DNA of 64,000 nucleotides from Escherichia phage LF82-9. A program made the position numbers and the translations under genes. Shown here piece after piece: positions 1,753 to 51,819 of the stretch (positions are counted from its first letter, which is position 1; every line of letters begins with the position of its first letter). The notes below the pieces were generated by a model that worked only from the letters and a program-made list of their open reading frames with translations, did no database searches and was not told where the DNA came from. The DNA is taken from sequence record PV660452, one strand, 5' to 3'.

Positions 1753-2909
1753 TCCGGGTACCTCAAAGCGTCATCAGAGTTAGTTATATCAATAATAGAT
1801 ATAGAGTTTTCTGATAACCCATTTTTAGATAACTGACGTTTATAATATCTTTCACAATATGTACACGTCGTCCCGCAGATTTCATTAGCACAATCGAAAT
1901 CTGGATGTCTGAACCACCTTTTTTCTAAAAAACCGTCTAACAATGAGGTTTCAATATTTACTGTATGTGAAAACTCAGTCTCATTTTCAAGAGTGAAAAT
2001 AGTCTCTAAAGGCTTCCACAGTTCTAACAAATTACCTTCAAACTTTTCAGAAGCGTATGCTTCAAGAACTTTCAAAATGTAGTCTGTGCTACCTGTACGT
2101 CCTGAAACTTTGAATTGAGTGATACCAATATCATTATAAAGTTTCAAATCTTGAGGACGAACAAAACGAGTTCTCAACCAGTTAAATGGGTCTGTATCAC
2201 GAGCTTTAATGCAGTGTTGCATTGGATATCCATTTAAGGATTTAGCATCATCAGCTGTAACATCAGTACTATGGAAAATATAGCAAGAGTCACGATAACT
2301 ACAATGTGTTGTATACCCTTTACCAGCATTAGAACAGAACTCATTTACAAGAACTTCAAATATTATATTGTTCTTATTGCAAAACTCTGCTGCACGCTTC
2401 AGGAAAGAAACTGAACGGTTCTTATGAATTCCACAGCAGACCTTTTTGATATTGTATTGGTCATGTAAGTATTTTATTTGAGTTACAGCATCGACATGTA
2501 GAATTGTTGAAACTTCAATCTCAATGTCTTTATTGACTTCACGAACAATTTCCATAACAACAGGGTTAGCGATAGTAATACGCCATACGCCTATTGACCA
2601 AAGATACTGAACATAATCCTGAATAGCTTTCTTCTTCCACTCGACTAGTTCTCTTTTTGAACCAGGATTTATCGTGTTGAGTGTATAGTTAAAGCAAATA
2701 CCTAATTCGTTACAACGTTTAACGTAATCTTCTAACATCTTTTTGTCAACGTCAGGAAGCCTAAAATCAGGTCTGGCTGCTACAAAAGCCATTTCTCTTG
2801 TAGAGCCATATACTTCGTTTATCAAGCTATTAGGATAGGTTTTATTGAGCTCTACGATTTTATCAAGAAGAGCTAAATCAAAATTCGTTCCGATTTTAAA
2901 AGTATTCAT
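1749..2909 (-). CDS. hypothetical Cys-rich protein in the sugar cluster (C-terminal CxxxCx5CxxC cluster; possible metal/Fe-S binding; function unknown)
   Basis: 386-aa ORF, ATG at 2909; C-terminal CANEICGTTCTYC motif; weak resemblance to U32-type enzymes not verifiable by eye. Confidence 0.6.
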   Translation of the reverse strand: MNTFKIGTNFDLALLDKIVELNKTYPNSLINEVYGSTREMAFVAARPDFRLPDVDKKMLEDYVKRCNELGICFNYTLNTINPGSKRELVEWKKKAIQDYVQYLWSIGVWRITIANPVVMEIVREVNKDIEIEVSTILHVDAVTQIKYLHDQYNIKKVCCGIHKNRSVSFLKRAAEFCNKNNIIFEVLVNEFCSNAGKGYTTHCSYRDSCYIFHSTDVTADDAKSLNGYPMQHCIKARDTDPFNWLRTRFVRPQDLKLYNDIGITQFKVSGRTGSTDYILKVLEAYASEKFEGNLLELWKPLETIFTLENETEFSHTVNIETSLLDGFLEKRWFRHPDFDCANEICGTTCTYCERYYKRQLSKNGLSENSISIIDITNSDDALRYPE

Positions 2910-3367: not shown

Positions 3368-5037
3368 TGATGAGTGATATCGCCACCGATTGGACGATAA
3401 GAAACACCAGTTTCTTTATCAGTTAGTACCCATTTACCAGGATTTTTTGTAATCAGAGTAGCCGTTACAGGTTCTGCTACGTCATAACTAATAGAGCCGT
3501 CTTGAAGTACACGGCCCATGTTACGTAATTGCTTAGTCAGAAGTTCCATACCTTTATAATATGCGGCTACCGCTTTAAGTGGATTATTCTTGAAATAACC
3601 ACCTAATGCAATCCAGATAATTGCTACGGCCAAATGATGATACTCGTTAAACGAACTCATCTTTCCATATTTGTAAACTAATGGATTGATGTTAATAGTC
3701 ACATTACAAGTTGTTTCATCAATAGTAAACTGTCCCCAGGTCGGATTAGCATTGAATTCATCATAACCTGAAACAGCATAAAGCACTTTAGCTTCATCGT
3801 ACAATTTTGGCCCGTAAATCTTGGTTTCGCCAAAATATCCACGAGGGTCGATAAACTTGACTTCGCCGTTATCAGTAATCATAGTATTACTGAAGTTTGG
3901 GTCACCGTGAATAACAGAGTACTGTCCCTGAGAACGGTTATGATAACGAATAAGATGTTCTAAAGCTTGTTTCAACATTGGCTTCAGACGTCCAATTTTA
4001 GTGTAGTTCACGTGTGTGATTTTACCGAATGAATCAATCAATGGCTGAATGCTTTCACAACGATCAATAACTTTCGTATAGAACTCTTTAGTGAAATCAC
4101 AGCGAACAGTTTCAGGACTTACAAAATAAGTGTCCGTGCTGAATTTCAGTGCATCTAAAATTGCATCAACAATTTGTGGACGAGCAAGACTTGATTTGGA
4201 TTTAATATATTCAAATGCCGGCTTACCTTTAATACGTTCCATTTCAAAATTATTTTCATTTACCGAAACTAACTGAGGAACTGAATCTGATTTCACTTTC
4301 AAATACCATGAAATCTCATCTTTTTGAAGAGCTCGACCTTGTTCGGTTAACGCGAATTTAGTTACAGTTTCTTCGCCAATTTCAACTGCATTAAAACTAC
4401 GATTCAGTTCACGAACTTCATGAGCCTTTTCAAGTTTAGGCATATCACCTAAATCAATTAGATTCATAAGCTCTGATTTATTGAATGCACTGCCGTAAAG
4501 GAATTCTACGAAATCACGGCCTTTGCAGTATTCGTGAATTTCCTCATCAGTAGAACCCATGTAAAATTCCCAATCTTTGAACTGATAAATTCCTACAACA
4601 TTACCGCCTGTTGAACCTACGTTAGTGATATTTTCACCATCGAAATTATATCGACATTCATCACCCTTAACATAGATTGCGTTAACATTCCAAGACCATG
4701 AACCAAAATCGGGAATAATATCACACCAGTTAACAATTACATTATGGCCATCTAAATCTTTATATAATTTAGCAAGAGCATAAGCAGAACCATACGCTTC
4801 ATCAACTGTACGAATAGTCACATTGAACCCTTCTTGCTCACAATAAGCTCGAACAGTTTCAGCAAATTTTGAATGAACTACTACAATAATTTCATCTGCG
4901 CCAAGGTCAGAATAAATTGTATACAAATTGCTCAGAATAGTGTCTTGTTTATAGTTAACAAGCACCTTAGGAATATGATGCGTTATTGGATACAAACGAG
5001 TTGCCAGTCCAGCACCAAGAATAACAGCTTTTTTCAT
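3352..5037 (-). CDS. bifunctional sugar-phosphate nucleotidyltransferase (N-terminal) / sugar kinase-like (C-terminal, APH/choline-kinase fold)
   Basis: N-terminus MKKAVILGAGLATRLYPITHHIPKVLV resembles GlmU/RmlA-type NTP-transferase G-x-G-x-R motif; C-terminal HGDPNFSNTMITDNGEVKFIDPRGYFG resembles kinase catalytic loop HGDxxxxN...D. Confidence 0.75.
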   Translation of the reverse strand: MKKAVILGAGLATRLYPITHHIPKVLVNYKQDTILSNLYTIYSDLGADEIIVVVHSKFAETVRAYCEQEGFNVTIRTVDEAYGSAYALAKLYKDLDGHNVIVNWCDIIPDFGSWSWNVNAIYVKGDECRYNFDGENITNVGSTGGNVVGIYQFKDWEFYMGSTDEEIHEYCKGRDFVEFLYGSAFNKSELMNLIDLGDMPKLEKAHEVRELNRSFNAVEIGEETVTKFALTEQGRALQKDEISWYLKVKSDSVPQLVSVNENNFEMERIKGKPAFEYIKSKSSLARPQIVDAILDALKFSTDTYFVSPETVRCDFTKEFYTKVIDRCESIQPLIDSFGKITHVNYTKIGRLKPMLKQALEHLIRYHNRSQGQYSVIHGDPNFSNTMITDNGEVKFIDPRGYFGETKIYGPKLYDEAKVLYAVSGYDEFNANPTWGQFTIDETTCNVTININPLVYKYGKMSSFNEYHHLAVAIIWIALGGYFKNNPLKAVAAYYKGMELLTKQLRNMGRVLQDGSISYDVAEPVTATLITKNPGKWVLTDKETGVSYRPIGGDITHQWERI

Positions 5038-48858: not shown

Positions 48859-49332
48859 TTATATGATTTGTTTAGCAGACCAAATGCGGTCTTTAATAAT
48901 TTTTTGGATGTCTTCAACATATTCAAGAGAGTGAACATGTGGGTTATCTTTGAAACTATAAGCACGAGCTAGCTTTTGGCCTTCAGTTTTGATTATCAAA
49001 AGTTCTTTAAGAATTGCTTCATACCTAGAGATAATTCCTTTAGCAATATTTTTTTCTTGTGCTGCTTTAGGGTCAGCCTTAGGAGCAGGTTTACCTGAAG
49101 CCTTTGCAAAAGCAGCTCCAGTAGCAACTAAACTTTTCCAAGCCATACTAACTGCATTCCCTGTAAATCCTTCGGCTTTCATATCACGAGCAAATTGGAA
49201 TCGTGATTCATCGGAAGCATCTTTATAGGAATATTTACCCGCGGCAATGGCAGCTTTTGCAACAGCTTGAATTTCAGTGCTAGATGCTTCATTTAACACC
49301 GCTTCATTTAAAAATTGAGCATATGATTTCAT
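48859..49332 (-). CDS. internal protein-like with capsid-targeting N-terminus
   Basis: N-terminus MKSYAQFLNEA; Ala/Lys-rich. Confidence 0.55.
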   Translation of the reverse strand: MKSYAQFLNEAVLNEASSTEIQAVAKAAIAAGKYSYKDASDESRFQFARDMKAEGFTGNAVSMAWKSLVATGAAFAKASGKPAPKADPKAAQEKNIAKGIISRYEAILKELLIIKTEGQKLARAYSFKDNPHVHSLEYVEDIQKIIKDRIWSAKQII

Positions 49333-49368
49333 CTTATTTCCTGTTTTAATTCGTGGTTTTAATATACT

Positions 49369-49376
49369 TATTTATA
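49369..49376 (-). promoter_or_regulatory. late promoter TATAAATA
   Basis: Exact TATAAATA on minus strand 37 nt upstream of ATG at 49332. Confidence 0.45.
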
Positions 49377-49382
49377 CTAAAA

Positions 49383-49406
49383 AGCCCCAACCTTTCGGTC
49401 GGGGCT
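49383..49406 (-). terminator. conserved terminator hairpin, copy 4 of 4
   Basis: AGCCCCGACC-GAAA-GGTTGGGGCT then T5. Confidence 0.5.
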
Positions 49407-49458
49407 AAGCCTTGCGGCAACCTTGTCGGGGTTCCACCTGCTAAGGCAAGTGTTTGTA

Positions 49459-49549
49459 CGAAACGCCGGGATTCGAACCCGGTTATTAAGCAGTTGACGC
49501 TACTCAATATTTTTAAAAGGCCATATCTCGACCATATCCGAACGTTCCG
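49459..49549 (-). ncRNA. tRNA-like element / candidate small stable RNA (not a canonical tRNA)
   Basis: Perfect T-arm CCGGG-TTCGAAT-CCCGG and a 7-bp acceptor-like pairing 49543..49549 with 49459..49465, but 91 nt long and no canonical D/anticodon arms. Confidence 0.3.
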
Positions 49550-49693
49550 TCAAAAACGCTACTCGGCTTACGGCAAAGATATTTCCTCGAATCGATAATT
49601 CGGTGCGCCGTTTCTGCTGTGATGTAAGAGGGCATCAATAAACGCAAAGATTATTAACGCAATTCCTTACTCAGGGAACATCAGTCCGACGAC

Positions 49694-50248
49694 TTACCGG
49701 TAGCGACCCGGTTTCTCATTTGGTATTTCAAATTGTGTAGATTTAGTATCTAATTTTTTAACTATGGAACTTATGTCATGAAAGAAAAACCATTCACCAT
49801 TTATATGGTCCTGATTATAAATGCTGTGCATATATTTTTCAAGTTCTACTGCATCCTGGGAATATCTAAATGATACTATTTTAAAACTTTTAAACGGTGA
49901 AAATGTATTTGCTGTTATAACTCTAACATCAGGTTCTATACTTCTTCCTATTTTATAATAATTAGGATTTGTAGTATCTACCATTATGTATACGAAAGCC
50001 TGTCGATAGCTTTTTTCTATATCAAATTCATCTTTAAATTTCAAAAGATTTAGGGCGGCAGTCCTACAAAATACTTTCCATTTTGACAAGCGTTTGGCTT
50101 CAGTCATAGAAAAGAATTTTTTCTTATCTGTTATTTTAAGAAAAGCAACATTTTCAATTAGTTCTTGTGTTATTTCAAAATTACCATGGTATATTAATCC
50201 AGCTTTTATAGCCAAATTAATTTGGTCCCAGTCTACATCACTTCTCAT
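49694..50248 (-). CDS. T5orf172/GIY-YIG-like domain protein inside the tRNA region (candidate homing-endonuclease-like gene)
   Basis: Motif FVYIMVDTTNPNYYKIGRSIEPDVRV resembles VYxL..N...YKIG.T....R core; AT-rich ORF; sits where T4 has segB. Confidence 0.4.
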   Translation of the reverse strand: MRSDVDWDQINLAIKAGLIYHGNFEITQELIENVAFLKITDKKKFFSMTEAKRLSKWKVFCRTAALNLLKFKDEFDIEKSYRQAFVYIMVDTTNPNYYKIGRSIEPDVRVITANTFSPFKSFKIVSFRYSQDAVELEKYMHSIYNQDHINGEWFFFHDISSIVKKLDTKSTQFEIPNEKPGRYR

Positions 50249-50269
50249 AATATTATTCTCTCAATAATT

Positions 50270-50346
50270 TGGTCAGGGTGAAAGGATTCTAACCTTTAAC
50301 CTGCGGTTTAGAGGACCGCTACTCTATACAATTGAGTTACACCCCG
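50270..50346 (-). tRNA. tRNA-Arg (anticodon UCU)
   Basis: Hand-folded cloverleaf; T-loop TTAGAAT; anticodon loop CCTCTAA (C at position 33 atypical); CCA encoded. Confidence 0.6.
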
Positions 50347-50472
50347 TAATTAGTTCACAGCAATACCTACTCCAACAATCAAGATGTCTTCACACGAAAT
50401 TAAGAGAAGTGTGATCAGTTCAACCCCTATAATCGCGTCAAGTAGATATTAATGTGACAGTTGTCACAAGTT

Positions 50473-50547
50473 TGGCGGACATGCATGGATTCGAACCATG
50501 GACCAATTGATTAACAGTCAACTGCTCTACCACTGAGCTACACATCC
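50473..50547 (-). tRNA. tRNA-Asn (anticodon GUU)
   Basis: Cloverleaf with D-arm GCTCAGTGGTAGAGC, anticodon loop CTGTTAA, T-arm CATGGTTCGAATCCATG, CCA encoded. Confidence 0.7.
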
Positions 50548-50551
50548 AAAT

Positions 50552-50638
50552 TGGTGGGGAGTGGTGGAGTCGAACCACCCGAGTCGCAATGACAATGAAT
50601 TTACAGTCCACACCGCTACCTCTACGGGATAACTCCCC
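50552..50638 (-). tRNA. tRNA-Tyr (anticodon GUA), long variable arm
   Basis: Acceptor GGGGAGT/ACTCCCC, anticodon loop CTGTAAA, T-arm GGTGGTTCGACTCCACC. Confidence 0.6.
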
Positions 50639-50644
50639 TTAATT

Positions 50645-50719
50645 TGGTGGCCCTGGGTGGAATTGAACCACCATCTGGCGATTATGAGTCGCTTGCTTGA
50701 ACCTTCCAGCTACAGGGCC
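50645..50719 (-). tRNA. tRNA with CAU anticodon (Met or lysidine-modified Ile)
   Basis: Acceptor GGCCCTG/CAGGGCC, anticodon loop CTCATAA, T-loop TTCAATT. Confidence 0.6.
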
Positions 50720-50720
50720 T

Positions 50721-50796
50721 TGGTGCTGATTAACGGAATCGAACCGCCGACCTTCTCATTACAAGTGAGTTGCTCTACCTACTGAGCTAAATCAGC
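50721..50796 (-). tRNA. tRNA-Thr (anticodon UGU)
   Basis: Acceptor GCTGATT/AATCAGC, D-arm GCTCAGTAGGTAGAGC, anticodon loop CTTGTAA. Confidence 0.7.
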
Positions 50797-50801
50797 AAAA
50801 C

Positions 50802-50891
50802 TGGCGGAGGCGATAGGATTTGAACCTATGAGTCGCCGGAGCGACTGCCGGTTTTCAAGACCGGTGCATTAAACCACTCTGCCACGCCTCC
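50802..50891 (-). tRNA. tRNA-Ser (anticodon UGA), long variable arm
   Basis: Acceptor GGAGGCG/CGCCTCC, anticodon stem-loop CCGGT-CTTGAAA-ACCGG. Confidence 0.7.
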
Positions 50892-50893
50892 AG

Positions 50894-50967
50894 TCTCCAT
50901 ACAAGGATTTGAACCTTGGACCTCCTGATCCCAAATCAGGCGCTCTACCAAACTGAGCTACACGGAG
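50894..50967 (-). tRNA. tRNA-Pro (anticodon UGG)
   Basis: Acceptor CTCCGTG/TATGGAG, anticodon loop TTTGGGA, T-arm CAAGGTTCAAATCCTTG; CCA not encoded. Confidence 0.7.
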
Positions 50968-50977
50968 TAAATTAAAT

Positions 50978-51051
<74 letters not shown>

Positions 51052-51056
51052 AAATT

Positions 51057-51143
51057 TGGTGCGAGAAGTGGGACTCGAACCCACAAGGAAATCATTCCGC
51101 AGCATTTTAAGTGCTGTGCCTTTACCAATTTGACCATTCTCGC
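51057..51143 (-). tRNA. tRNA-Leu (anticodon UAA), long variable arm
   Basis: Acceptor GCGAGAA, anticodon loop CTTAAAA, T-arm GTGGGTTCGAGTCCCAC, CCA encoded. Confidence 0.75.
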
Positions 51144-51144
51144 G

Positions 51145-51217
51145 CTGGGAATAAAGGACTCGAACCTTTGCATCCTGGAATCAAAATCCAGTGCCTTACC
51201 AACTTGGCTAATTCCCA
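51145..51217 (-). tRNA. tRNA-Gln (anticodon UUG)
   Basis: Acceptor TGGGAAT/ATTCCCA, anticodon loop TTTTGAT, abuts tRNA-Leu with 1-nt spacer as in T4 Gln-Leu dimer. Confidence 0.75.
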
Positions 51218-51303
51218 ATTATTAACAAAGGCTCTCAAACAAGAACCCTTGATGATAGAGGGTATTAATCAGTGCGGTATAAGTTAATAATAACAAATAA
51301 TTC

Positions 51304-51819
51304 TTAAAGCAAATTAAACATCTTAACGGTCGGCAAAACAATTTCTTCTTCTATATAAGAGTATTTAACACTCTCAACTACACGCAAAAAATCATAATCA
51401 TAATACTCAGAAGCATTACCTAAAATATTAATAAGTCCTTCAAGCACTTTATTACCATTCACAAAGAATAAGTCAAATACACGTTCTTCATCTTCTTCAG
51501 ATTTATTACCAAGGTCAACTTCTATATCAAAGACCTTTTTAATGAATTCTGGATAAAGTTGGTCTGAGAACAGTCCTTCAACCAAGTATTCATAGATAAA
51601 AAGCGATTGCTCACTGAACGAAGCATTACCACAATAGTGATCAACTTTTGTGCTAGAATGACGGCTTTTAAACTTCTTTAAAAGATATTGGAATTGTAAG
51701 ATTTCATGCTCTTCTACACCAAACAATGTTTTGGTTTTATAGTTGTCACCGTCATTTTCCCATGTAGTTACATCAATCACATAACCCTGCGGAATTGTAG
51801 TACCTAAACAAATATTCAT
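51304..51819 (-). CDS. hypothetical protein
   Basis: 171-aa ORF. Confidence 0.5.
   Translation of the reverse strand: MNICLGTTIPQGYVIDVTTWENDGDNYKTKTLFGVEEHEILQFQYLLKKFKSRHSSTKVDHYCGNASFSEQSLFIYEYLVEGLFSDQLYPEFIKKVFDIEVDLGNKSEEDEERVFDLFFVNGNKVLEGLINILGNASEYYDYDFLRVVESVKYSYIEEEIVLPTVKMFNLL

Follow-up and report, generated by a model that had tools for sequence, protein, structure and literature searches.

The region analyzed here, positions 49411 to 49693 on the minus strand of a 64,000-nucleotide stretch of Escherichia phage LF82-9 (PV660452; the whole stretch is referred to as the window), contains the orthologs of two small stable RNA genes of phage T4, rnaD and rnaC, and beyond them a 3' trailer and the terminator of the operon. 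In comparisons with phage genomes (BLAST), the region was ~98% identical to T4 and 100% identical to Escherichia phage REP2. Matches were found in 805 phage records, nearly all of them T4-like phages of Escherichia, Shigella, or Yersinia. In X03016, the original record of the T4 tRNA region, the corresponding features are labeled "species 2 RNA" (4615-4734), "species 1 RNA" (4741-4877), and "pot. terminator," and the matching segment of the T4 GT7 genome (KJ477686) is labeled "rnaC; small, stable RNA; species 1 RNA." The boundaries of rnaD and rnaC in the window were transferred from T4 by pairwise alignment to X03016. The flagged region thus consists of the known T-even phage RNAs species 1 (rnaC) and species 2 (rnaD) rather than anything new.

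On the minus strand, the order of features is a tRNA cluster, an open reading frame (ORF) with a MUG113/T5orf172 domain, rnaD, a 6-nt spacer, rnaC, a 51-nt structured trailer, and the terminator. The initial annotation had described one structured noncoding element lying between a terminator hairpin and a T5orf172-like ORF. Both neighbors were recovered, the terminator at 49406-49383 and, by Pfam, the ORF at 49694-50248, and the interval is indeed a structured RNA region, but treating it as one element merges the rnaD and rnaC genes with the 3' trailer. The proposal of a small stable RNA like those of the T4 tRNA region was literally right, given the identity to the T4 species 1 and species 2 features. 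The statement that no canonical tRNA is present also held: ARAGORN made no call in 49411-49720, and the Rfam tRNA model had no hit there at an E value of ≤10. That Rfam scan (49000-51500, E ≤ 10), of the kind that the annotation had suggested, returned only real tRNAs and noise, with nothing credible in 49411-49720. The genes at the center of the region are as follows.

49601-49719, minus strand: rnaD (T4 species 2 RNA ortholog), 119 nt, aligning to X03016 4615-4734
49595-49600, minus strand: 6-nt spacer AAUUAU, which separates rnaD from rnaC and forms the rnaC 5' leader
49458-49594, minus strand: rnaC (T4 species 1 RNA ortholog), 137 nt encoded, from C49594 (first acceptor base) to the discriminator U49458

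Fold of rnaC and covariation between its apical loops

The rnaC sequence is identical to X03016 4741-4877 at 135 of 137 positions (two substitutions) and 100% identical to the annotated rnaC of phages RB3 and RB10 (BLAST). Relative to T4, U20·U65 is replaced by U20·C65 (a 1-by-1 internal loop) and U93-A104 by U93·G104, both structure neutral; rnaD upstream and trailer hairpins and a terminator downstream are shared with T4. A covariance model (R1) matched exactly 49458-49594 over its full length (150.9 bits), the sole copy in the window, and the minimum free energy (MFE) of the single sequence was −50.1 kcal/mol (z = −4.4). Homologs collected from GenBank phages, IMG/VR, and metagenomes amounted to 37 distinct sequences of 136 to 140 nt from at least eight genera, including Tequatrovirus, Karamvirus, Kanagawavirus, Gelderlandvirus, Tegunavirus, Moonvirus, and Marfavirus, as well as unclassified Straboviridae. 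Most matches from the metagenome scan, run with a relaxed structural pattern, were GC-rich and due to chance, and the scan added few true variants.

Base pairs were counted in a MAFFT alignment (A3) and a model-guided alignment (A6), with 500 shuffles and slid-partner controls. In both alignments, 91% of cells paired in the rnaC fold, versus ~40% for slid partners. Compensatory double changes were present in 34 of 54 pairs (A6, 37 sequences), and none of the 500 shuffles reached the observed values. RNAalifold independently recovered the same four helices (covariation term, −8.07). The covariation analysis that had been proposed with the initial annotation therefore supports the four-helix fold across phage genera, and the description of rnaC as a tRNA-like four-helix junction, made up of an acceptor stem, arm I, arm II, and a T-arm, is well supported. 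Its parts are listed from 5' to 3'.

49588-49594, minus strand: 5' strand CGAUUCG of the 7-bp acceptor-like stem, pairing with CGUUUCG at 49465-49459
49518-49587, minus strand: arm I, a long irregular hairpin of 70 nt with 26 bp in five segments, in the position of the tRNA D-arm
49548-49553, minus strand: loop I, UUGACG, apical loop of arm I and exact complement of loop II
49510-49517, minus strand: A-rich, 8-nt single-stranded linker UUUAAAAA from arm I to arm II, unpaired in the MFE and RNAalifold consensus structures
49484-49509, minus strand: arm II, a hairpin of 10 bp capped by a 6-nt loop and separated from the downstream T stem by 1 nt
49494-49499, minus strand: loop II, CGUCAA, apical loop of arm II and partner of loop I
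49466-49482, minus strand: T-arm CCGGG-UUCGAAU-CCCGG, with a 5-bp stem and a 7-nt loop that fits the tRNA UUCRANY motif
49459-49465, minus strand: acceptor 3' strand CGUUUCG, followed by the discriminator U (49458) and ACA (49457-49455)

In the T4 annotation, rnaC extends from the first acceptor base to the discriminator. Of the 37 sequences, 13 have A-U and 24 have G-C as acceptor pair 3. Positions 4 and 5 are conserved tandem U·U mismatches that become U-A and C-G in Tegunavirus, where the acceptor strands (CGGUCCG/CGGACUG) pair at all seven positions by Watson-Crick or G·U pairs. Past the discriminator, most genera have the three bases ACA, whereas Tegunavirus has UCA and Marfavirus an encoded CCA. 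The perfect T-arm reported in the initial annotation (CCGGG-TTCGAAT-CCCGG, minus strand, 49482-49466) was confirmed and belongs to rnaC; it was the only match to the T-arm motif in the window even at three mismatches (expected, 0.05). Across homologs, the T stem was 100% paired, with U-A, G-C, or A-U as pair 3, and one Kanagawavirus clade carried a noncanonical T-loop (UGCAUGC).

Arm I, which has a 3-nt 5' bulge beneath its top stem, showed compensatory double changes in 15 of 20 lower pairs and five of six top-stem pairs. Its sequence is wholly exchanged in Gelderlandvirus, Marfavirus, Moonvirus, and some Kanagawavirus and Karamvirus copies, with length and pairing retained. Double changes were found in nine of the 10 arm II pairs, and the linker core (...AAAAU) was conserved (alignments A2, A3, and A6). 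The option of a tRNA remnant, also raised in the initial annotation, is unsupported because numerous compensatory changes across genera preserve these non-tRNA arms. Arms I and II of T4-type rnaC each contain the 9-mer GAGUAGCGU (positions 31 to 39 and 90 to 98; 49564-49556 and 49505-49497), and in the KaAlpha sequence arm I shares 15 nt of complementarity with arm II, such that RNAfold favors an inter-arm duplex there. Internal duplication as the origin, or else an alternative conformer, is a possible explanation of these observations.

Loops I and II were complementary in all 37 distinct sequences (222 of 222 cells paired), including the copies with a wholly replaced arm I stem. Two independent double substitutions were found, one from C-G to U-A in Tegunavirus (UUGAUG/CAUCAA; two sequences) and one from A-U to G-C in Marfavirus (UUGGCG/CGCCAA; six sequences), and no one-sided changes were seen among the 37 sequences. 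The complementarity is not a selection artifact, since the patterns used on IMG/VR and the metagenomes left the loop sequences unconstrained. Folding the loops as an ordinary nested helix gave −29.1 versus −50.1 kcal/mol, a cost of 21 kcal/mol, and was ruled out on energy. Because the loops are complementary in every sequence and covary twice, and given the cost of the nested alternative, they most likely form a kissing-loop (pseudoknot) contact. No description of such a contact in rnaC was found in the literature searched.

The 10 bp of arm II, the 6 bp of the predicted kiss, and the 6-bp top stem of arm I add up to 22 bp, and lower arm I comprises 20 bp plus three internal-loop layers (roughly 20 to 24 stacked layers). 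With these matching lengths, it is geometrically conceivable that the contact closes within one molecule into two side-by-side stacks.

rnaD, the operon, and distribution across phages

rnaD lies directly upstream of rnaC, as in T4, and differs from X03016 by a single substitution and a 1-nt deletion; against T4 strain GT7, identity is 100% over 118 nt. Its consensus fold, from 15 distinct homologs, comprises a 5' hairpin and a long irregular hairpin, with double changes in eight pairs; the base of the long hairpin is conserved, and its apex is variable and covarying. The closing pair of the 5' hairpin is A-U in nine, G-C in four, and G-U in two of the 15 sequences. The 5' hairpin and basal helix are shared with T4. 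A tRNA-like reading of rnaD was rejected because the basal helix leaves a 2-nt 3' overhang, no T-arm-like motif was seen in the sequence, and the last two bases vary among CA, CG, CU, and AG (the gene ends CACCA in T4, CACCG here, and CACCU or CACAG elsewhere). A plus-strand "terminator" predicted at the 5' hairpin is spurious and is caused by that hairpin. In a 2025 experiment, every line of a T4-like phage under adaptation to host ECOR34 gained an identical single-nucleotide polymorphism in rnaD (PMC12685909).

The remaining features of the operon are given below.

49696-49712, minus strand: rnaD 5' hairpin ACCGG-GUCGCUA-CCGGU, 5 bp, with an invariant 7-nt loop
49435-49452, minus strand: 3' trailer hairpin CACUUGC-CUUA-GCAGGUG, 7 bp, kept in T4 and JS98
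49383-49406, minus strand: intrinsic terminator of the tRNA/stable-RNA operon, 10-bp stem (seven G-C pairs) with a GAAA loop
49694-50248, minus strand: ORF of 184 amino acids with a MUG113/T5orf172 domain (Pfam), between tRNA-Arg and rnaD
50270-51217, minus strand: cluster of 10 tRNA genes in the same operon as rnaD and rnaC (ARAGORN, Rfam)
~51313, upstream of the tRNA cluster: MotA-box middle-promoter-like site; X03016 has PM2 at the homologous place

The trailer and terminator together (49457-49377) fold at −36.5 kcal/mol (z = −4.2). The terminator hairpin and its UUUUU run span 49406-49378 and have the features of a rho-independent terminator. Within the trailer (49411-49457, minus strand), CCCCGAC at ~49433 is a partial direct repeat of the 5' arm of the terminator (CCCCGAC at ~49403), in the motif CCCCGAC...AAGGUUG. 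Two bases past the U run lies a T4 late-promoter consensus, TATAAATA (49376-49369, minus strand), which presumably drives the downstream ORF of 157 amino acids (48859-49332); no Pfam match was found for that ORF.

The MUG113/T5orf172 ORF (PF13455, E = 2.6e-9; PF10544, E = 3.4e-6; stop codon at 49696-49694) is an extra gene before rnaD that T4 does not have at the corresponding position. The last eight codons and stop of the ORF coincide with the first 26 nt of rnaD (49694-49719), 5' hairpin included; rnaD thus overlaps the ORF end by 26 nt here, whereas the T4 copy comes one nucleotide after tRNA-Arg. Sequence homologous to T4 starts again at "ATACCA," which corresponds to the 3' end of T4 tRNA-Arg, and the junction looks like a mobile-element-style insertion or replacement. 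A sigma-70-like promoter (TTGAAA-17-TATAAT, 11 of 12 consensus positions; 49842-49814, minus strand) lies inside the ORF and would start transcription ~90 nt upstream of rnaD, possibly by chance, as five such sites were found in the region versus seven expected. The upstream tRNA set also differs from that of T4. The window tRNA-Arg(tct) (50270-50346, minus strand) differs in sequence from the T4 tRNA-Arg, and the middle of the cluster holds tRNA-Met, -Tyr, -Asn, and -Arg plus the ORF, versus the Ile-segB-Arg arrangement of T4, resembling clusters of the T2L/RB1/RB3 type (PMC2330249). The 126-nt gap between tRNA-Asn and tRNA-Arg (50347-50472, minus strand) contains the short inverted repeats GTGACA-AC-TGTCAC and CACAC...GTGTG.

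Within tRNA clusters, rnaC starts ~5 to 8 nt past the CCA of the upstream tRNA or the 3' end of rnaD. In Karamvirus, Gelderlandvirus, and Tegunavirus, it is located midcluster, with another tRNA directly after it; in some Kanagawavirus and Moonvirus genomes, it lies away from tRNAs, and the copies at four of the collected loci (L006, L021, L070, and L072) follow neither a tRNA nor rnaD. Most non-Tequatrovirus genera have rnaC without rnaD. Phage JS98 has rnaD, the trailer hairpin, and the terminator without rnaC (694-930 of locus L010). rnaD and rnaC are independent modules. A few bases (GAA) past the rnaD 3' end, JS98 continues with the trailer hairpin sequence CACTTGCC... In Marfavirus-type contigs, a conserved element of ~66 nt (AAGGGGTGG...CCCACYCC) lies between a tRNA (...GGGTCACCA) and rnaC and fills the slot that rnaD occupies in T4-type phages (loci L028 to L030, L035, and L063; e.g., 1868-1933, minus strand, in L029). 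It was tried as a structured RNA and rejected, its fold being no better than those of shuffled sequences (z = −0.2), and it is missing from Klebsiella phage EI (L068).

Alternative readings of the region

The explanation that joins these results, in which two known RNAs form the tail of a tRNA operon and one of them, rnaC, is a tRNA mimic with a loop-loop contact and a guessed role as decoy or scaffold, is considered very probable. Several points weigh against it. The T4 annotation and T4 work of the 1970s are the basis for the proposed transcript ends, CCA addition, and cleavage by RNase P. With conserved tandem U·U mismatches in the acceptor stem and a noncanonical T-loop in one clade, full tRNA-like recognition is not guaranteed. 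The loop-loop pairing draws on two independent covariation events and only two, and an intramolecular kiss needs a bend of nearly 180 degrees at the 3-nt bulge, where there is no recognizable kink-turn. Deletions of the T4 tRNA region are viable.

The covariation points to pairing of the loops but does not place the partner in the same molecule, and it is possible, if doubtful, that rnaC molecules pair with one another in head-to-tail dimers, rings, or filaments that would display several tRNA-like minihelices. Coaxial stacking of arms I and II, like that of the D and anticodon stems of tRNA, would point the loops apart. Species 1 RNA runs as a monomer-sized band on classical gels, which were denaturing. 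ROOL and GOLLD, found near phage tRNA islands, form RNA-only cages via kissing loops (PMC12286853), and phage RNAs of <200 nt multimerize through kissing loops (bioRxiv 10.64898/2026.07.01.735769). In favor of closure within one molecule, the 22 bp of the closing stack would match the layers of lower arm I, and arm I keeps a constant length despite replacement of its sequence (total length, 136 to 140 nt).

The initial annotation had paired the seven bases after the T-arm with a stretch 84 nt upstream as an acceptor-like stem. That complementarity exists, with CGTTTCG (49465-49459) complementing CGGAACG (49549-49543) with one G·U pair, and the 7-mers pair in 84% of cells across homologs. Extended to a tRNA-like gene or remnant of 91 to 96 nt, with this stem as the acceptor, arm II as a long variable arm, and the linker as a degenerate anticodon loop, it corresponds to the fold called by ARAGORN in two Karamvirus loci (747-842 in L005 and L008) as tRNA-Phe(gaa) of 96 nt; one GenBank record carries the same tRNA. 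The pairing does not, however, stand as an acceptor stem: among 27 homologs it showed no compensatory change and scored below all 500 shuffles, it is mutually exclusive with arm I and its covarying lower pairs, and forcing it (84 nt, start to start) costs 13.8 kcal/mol relative to the MFE. ARAGORN and Rfam made no such call in the window, and the 5' end annotated in T4 is 45 nt farther upstream, where the supported acceptor partner CGATTCG (49594-49588) coincides with the mapped 5' end of T4 species 1 RNA. By covariation, the Karamvirus calls are false positives, and a tRNA of this form is highly improbable. Still less credence is given to small proteins encoded by the minus-strand ORFs of 44 amino acids (49513-49647) and 53 amino acids (49346-49507). 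These ORFs are present in the window, and dozens of GenBank records carry hypothetical proteins here, but stop codons break the frames in T4 itself and in most other genera, homologs differ by 1- and 2-nt indels, and substitutions preserve base pairs, by which a protein-coding reading was ruled out.

A purely cis-acting role, in which both structures would serve processing or stability or form a terminator-proximal 3' untranslated region of the tRNA operon and the free RNAs would have no function, would fit the position of both RNAs in T4-type phages, where they close the operon immediately ahead of the terminator, the failure of 50 years of work to find a function in trans, and the dispensability of the region (PMC2330249). 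It is nevertheless unlikely to account for the data. rnaC stands between tRNAs or away from them in the genera noted above, each RNA occurs independently of the other (rnaD alone in JS98 and rnaC alone in many genera), both accumulate as discrete stable species in T4 (PMC9697503), and the conservation of the loops and linker exceeds what a stabilizing hairpin needs.

Proposed maturation, related RNAs, and possible function

The identity, boundaries, secondary structure, and loop-loop covariation of the RNAs are results of the present analysis; co-transcription, stability, late accumulation, and dispensability in laboratory hosts are taken from the T4 literature. Transcription of the T4 tRNA cluster starts at a middle promoter and gives a precursor of ~1.75 kb that contains eight tRNAs along with species I and II and ends past the species I gene, and the region is nonessential (PMC2330249). 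RNAC and RNAD of T4 were validated by Northern blotting and classed among the late RNAs "of yet unknown functions" (PMC9697503), and a 2010 review gives the roles of the T4 stable RNAs as unknown (PMC3014915). No function was assigned to rnaC or rnaD in the literature searched. By analogy with T4, rnaD and rnaC would form the last part of the tRNA operon transcript, which would run from the upstream middle promoter to the terminator at 49406-49383, and would be cut out of the precursor as discrete stable RNAs.

The rnaC acceptor stem joins the extreme 5' and 3' ends and would stack on the canonical T-arm, with the discriminator U next to it. Because the annotated ends, the xCA flank, and the spacing within tRNA clusters fit, we infer maturation by the host tRNA machinery, with RNase P cleaving at C49594 and 3' trimming followed by CCA addition or repair after U49458. 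The species 1 feature of X03016 stops at the discriminator, which fits posttranscriptional CCA addition, and the window encodes U-ACA. In the T4 work of the 1970s, species 1 RNA was described as a molecule of 140 nt including CCA, with modified T and pseudouridine, that is matured with RNase P.

Like a canonical tRNA (RF00005), rnaC has a 7-bp acceptor that joins its ends, a discriminator, a 5-bp T stem with a UUCGAAU loop, and a four-helix junction, and it sits inside tRNA gene clusters with tRNA-like spacing. Unlike a tRNA, it has neither a D-arm nor an anticodon arm, is 137 nt long, carries tandem U·U mismatches in the acceptor, and encodes ACA rather than CCA; its junction linkers are 0/8/1/0 nt, versus 2/1/4-5/0 nt in tRNA. 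With arms I and II in place of the D- and anticodon arms, rnaC cannot decode. The apical loops of these arms would pair within or between molecules, and with an internal kiss the body would be closed as two helical stacks of ~22 bp each, lying side by side. rnaC would present only an acceptor/T minihelix on a rigid body.

The tRNA-like domain of transfer-messenger RNA (tmRNA), mascRNA, the tRNA-like structures of plant viruses, and YrlA are tRNA-like RNAs that are processed by tRNA enzymes. An acceptor/T minihelix on a nondecoding body is common to rnaC and such RNAs and should suffice for RNase P and the CCA-adding enzyme. None of them shows sequence or Rfam similarity to rnaC (YrlA matched only on real tRNAs), and rnaC differs in having no mRNA-like part, G3·U70 pair, or pseudoknotted acceptor and in having a body architecture of its own. 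With phi29 pRNA and with ROOL, GOLLD, and manA, rnaC shares the property of a phage-encoded structured RNA with conserved complementary loops, which form kissing contacts in those RNAs and are predicted to do so in rnaC (PMC12286853; bioRxiv 10.64898/2026.07.01.735769). ROOL and GOLLD are often next to tRNA islands, and the functions of these phage RNAs are unknown or structural. They show no homology to rnaC, and their contacts are known to be intermolecular; ROOL and GOLLD are also far larger and have no tRNA-like end.

One weakly supported guess is that rnaC acts on a host or phage tRNA-binding protein, as its decoy or its scaffold, with an effect on host-specific fitness. It is rather unlikely, though worth stating, that rnaC is a family spread across T4-like genera whose body is locked by the loop contact, as a clamp or as an oligomer interface, and that it serves in this way. 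If so, the decoy target might be, for example, a host tRNA-targeting defense nuclease, a tRNA-processing enzyme, or the CCA-adding enzyme, and the RNA would bring a host-specific gain in fitness.

The species 1 and 2 RNAs have been known since the 1970s, and their detection here is the rediscovery of a textbook T4 feature. Rfam has no family for rnaC, and because that model is missing, T4-like records misannotate the gene: one labels it "tRNA-OTHER," one gives a false tRNA-Phe, and dozens place one to four "hypothetical protein" coding sequences over rnaC and rnaD. An alignment such as A6, together with model R1, could seed an Rfam family and clean up these annotations. A functional question that is 50 years old also gains a model, in which the exact ends, the four helices, the U·U pairs, the A-rich linker, and the loop contact are targets for mutants.

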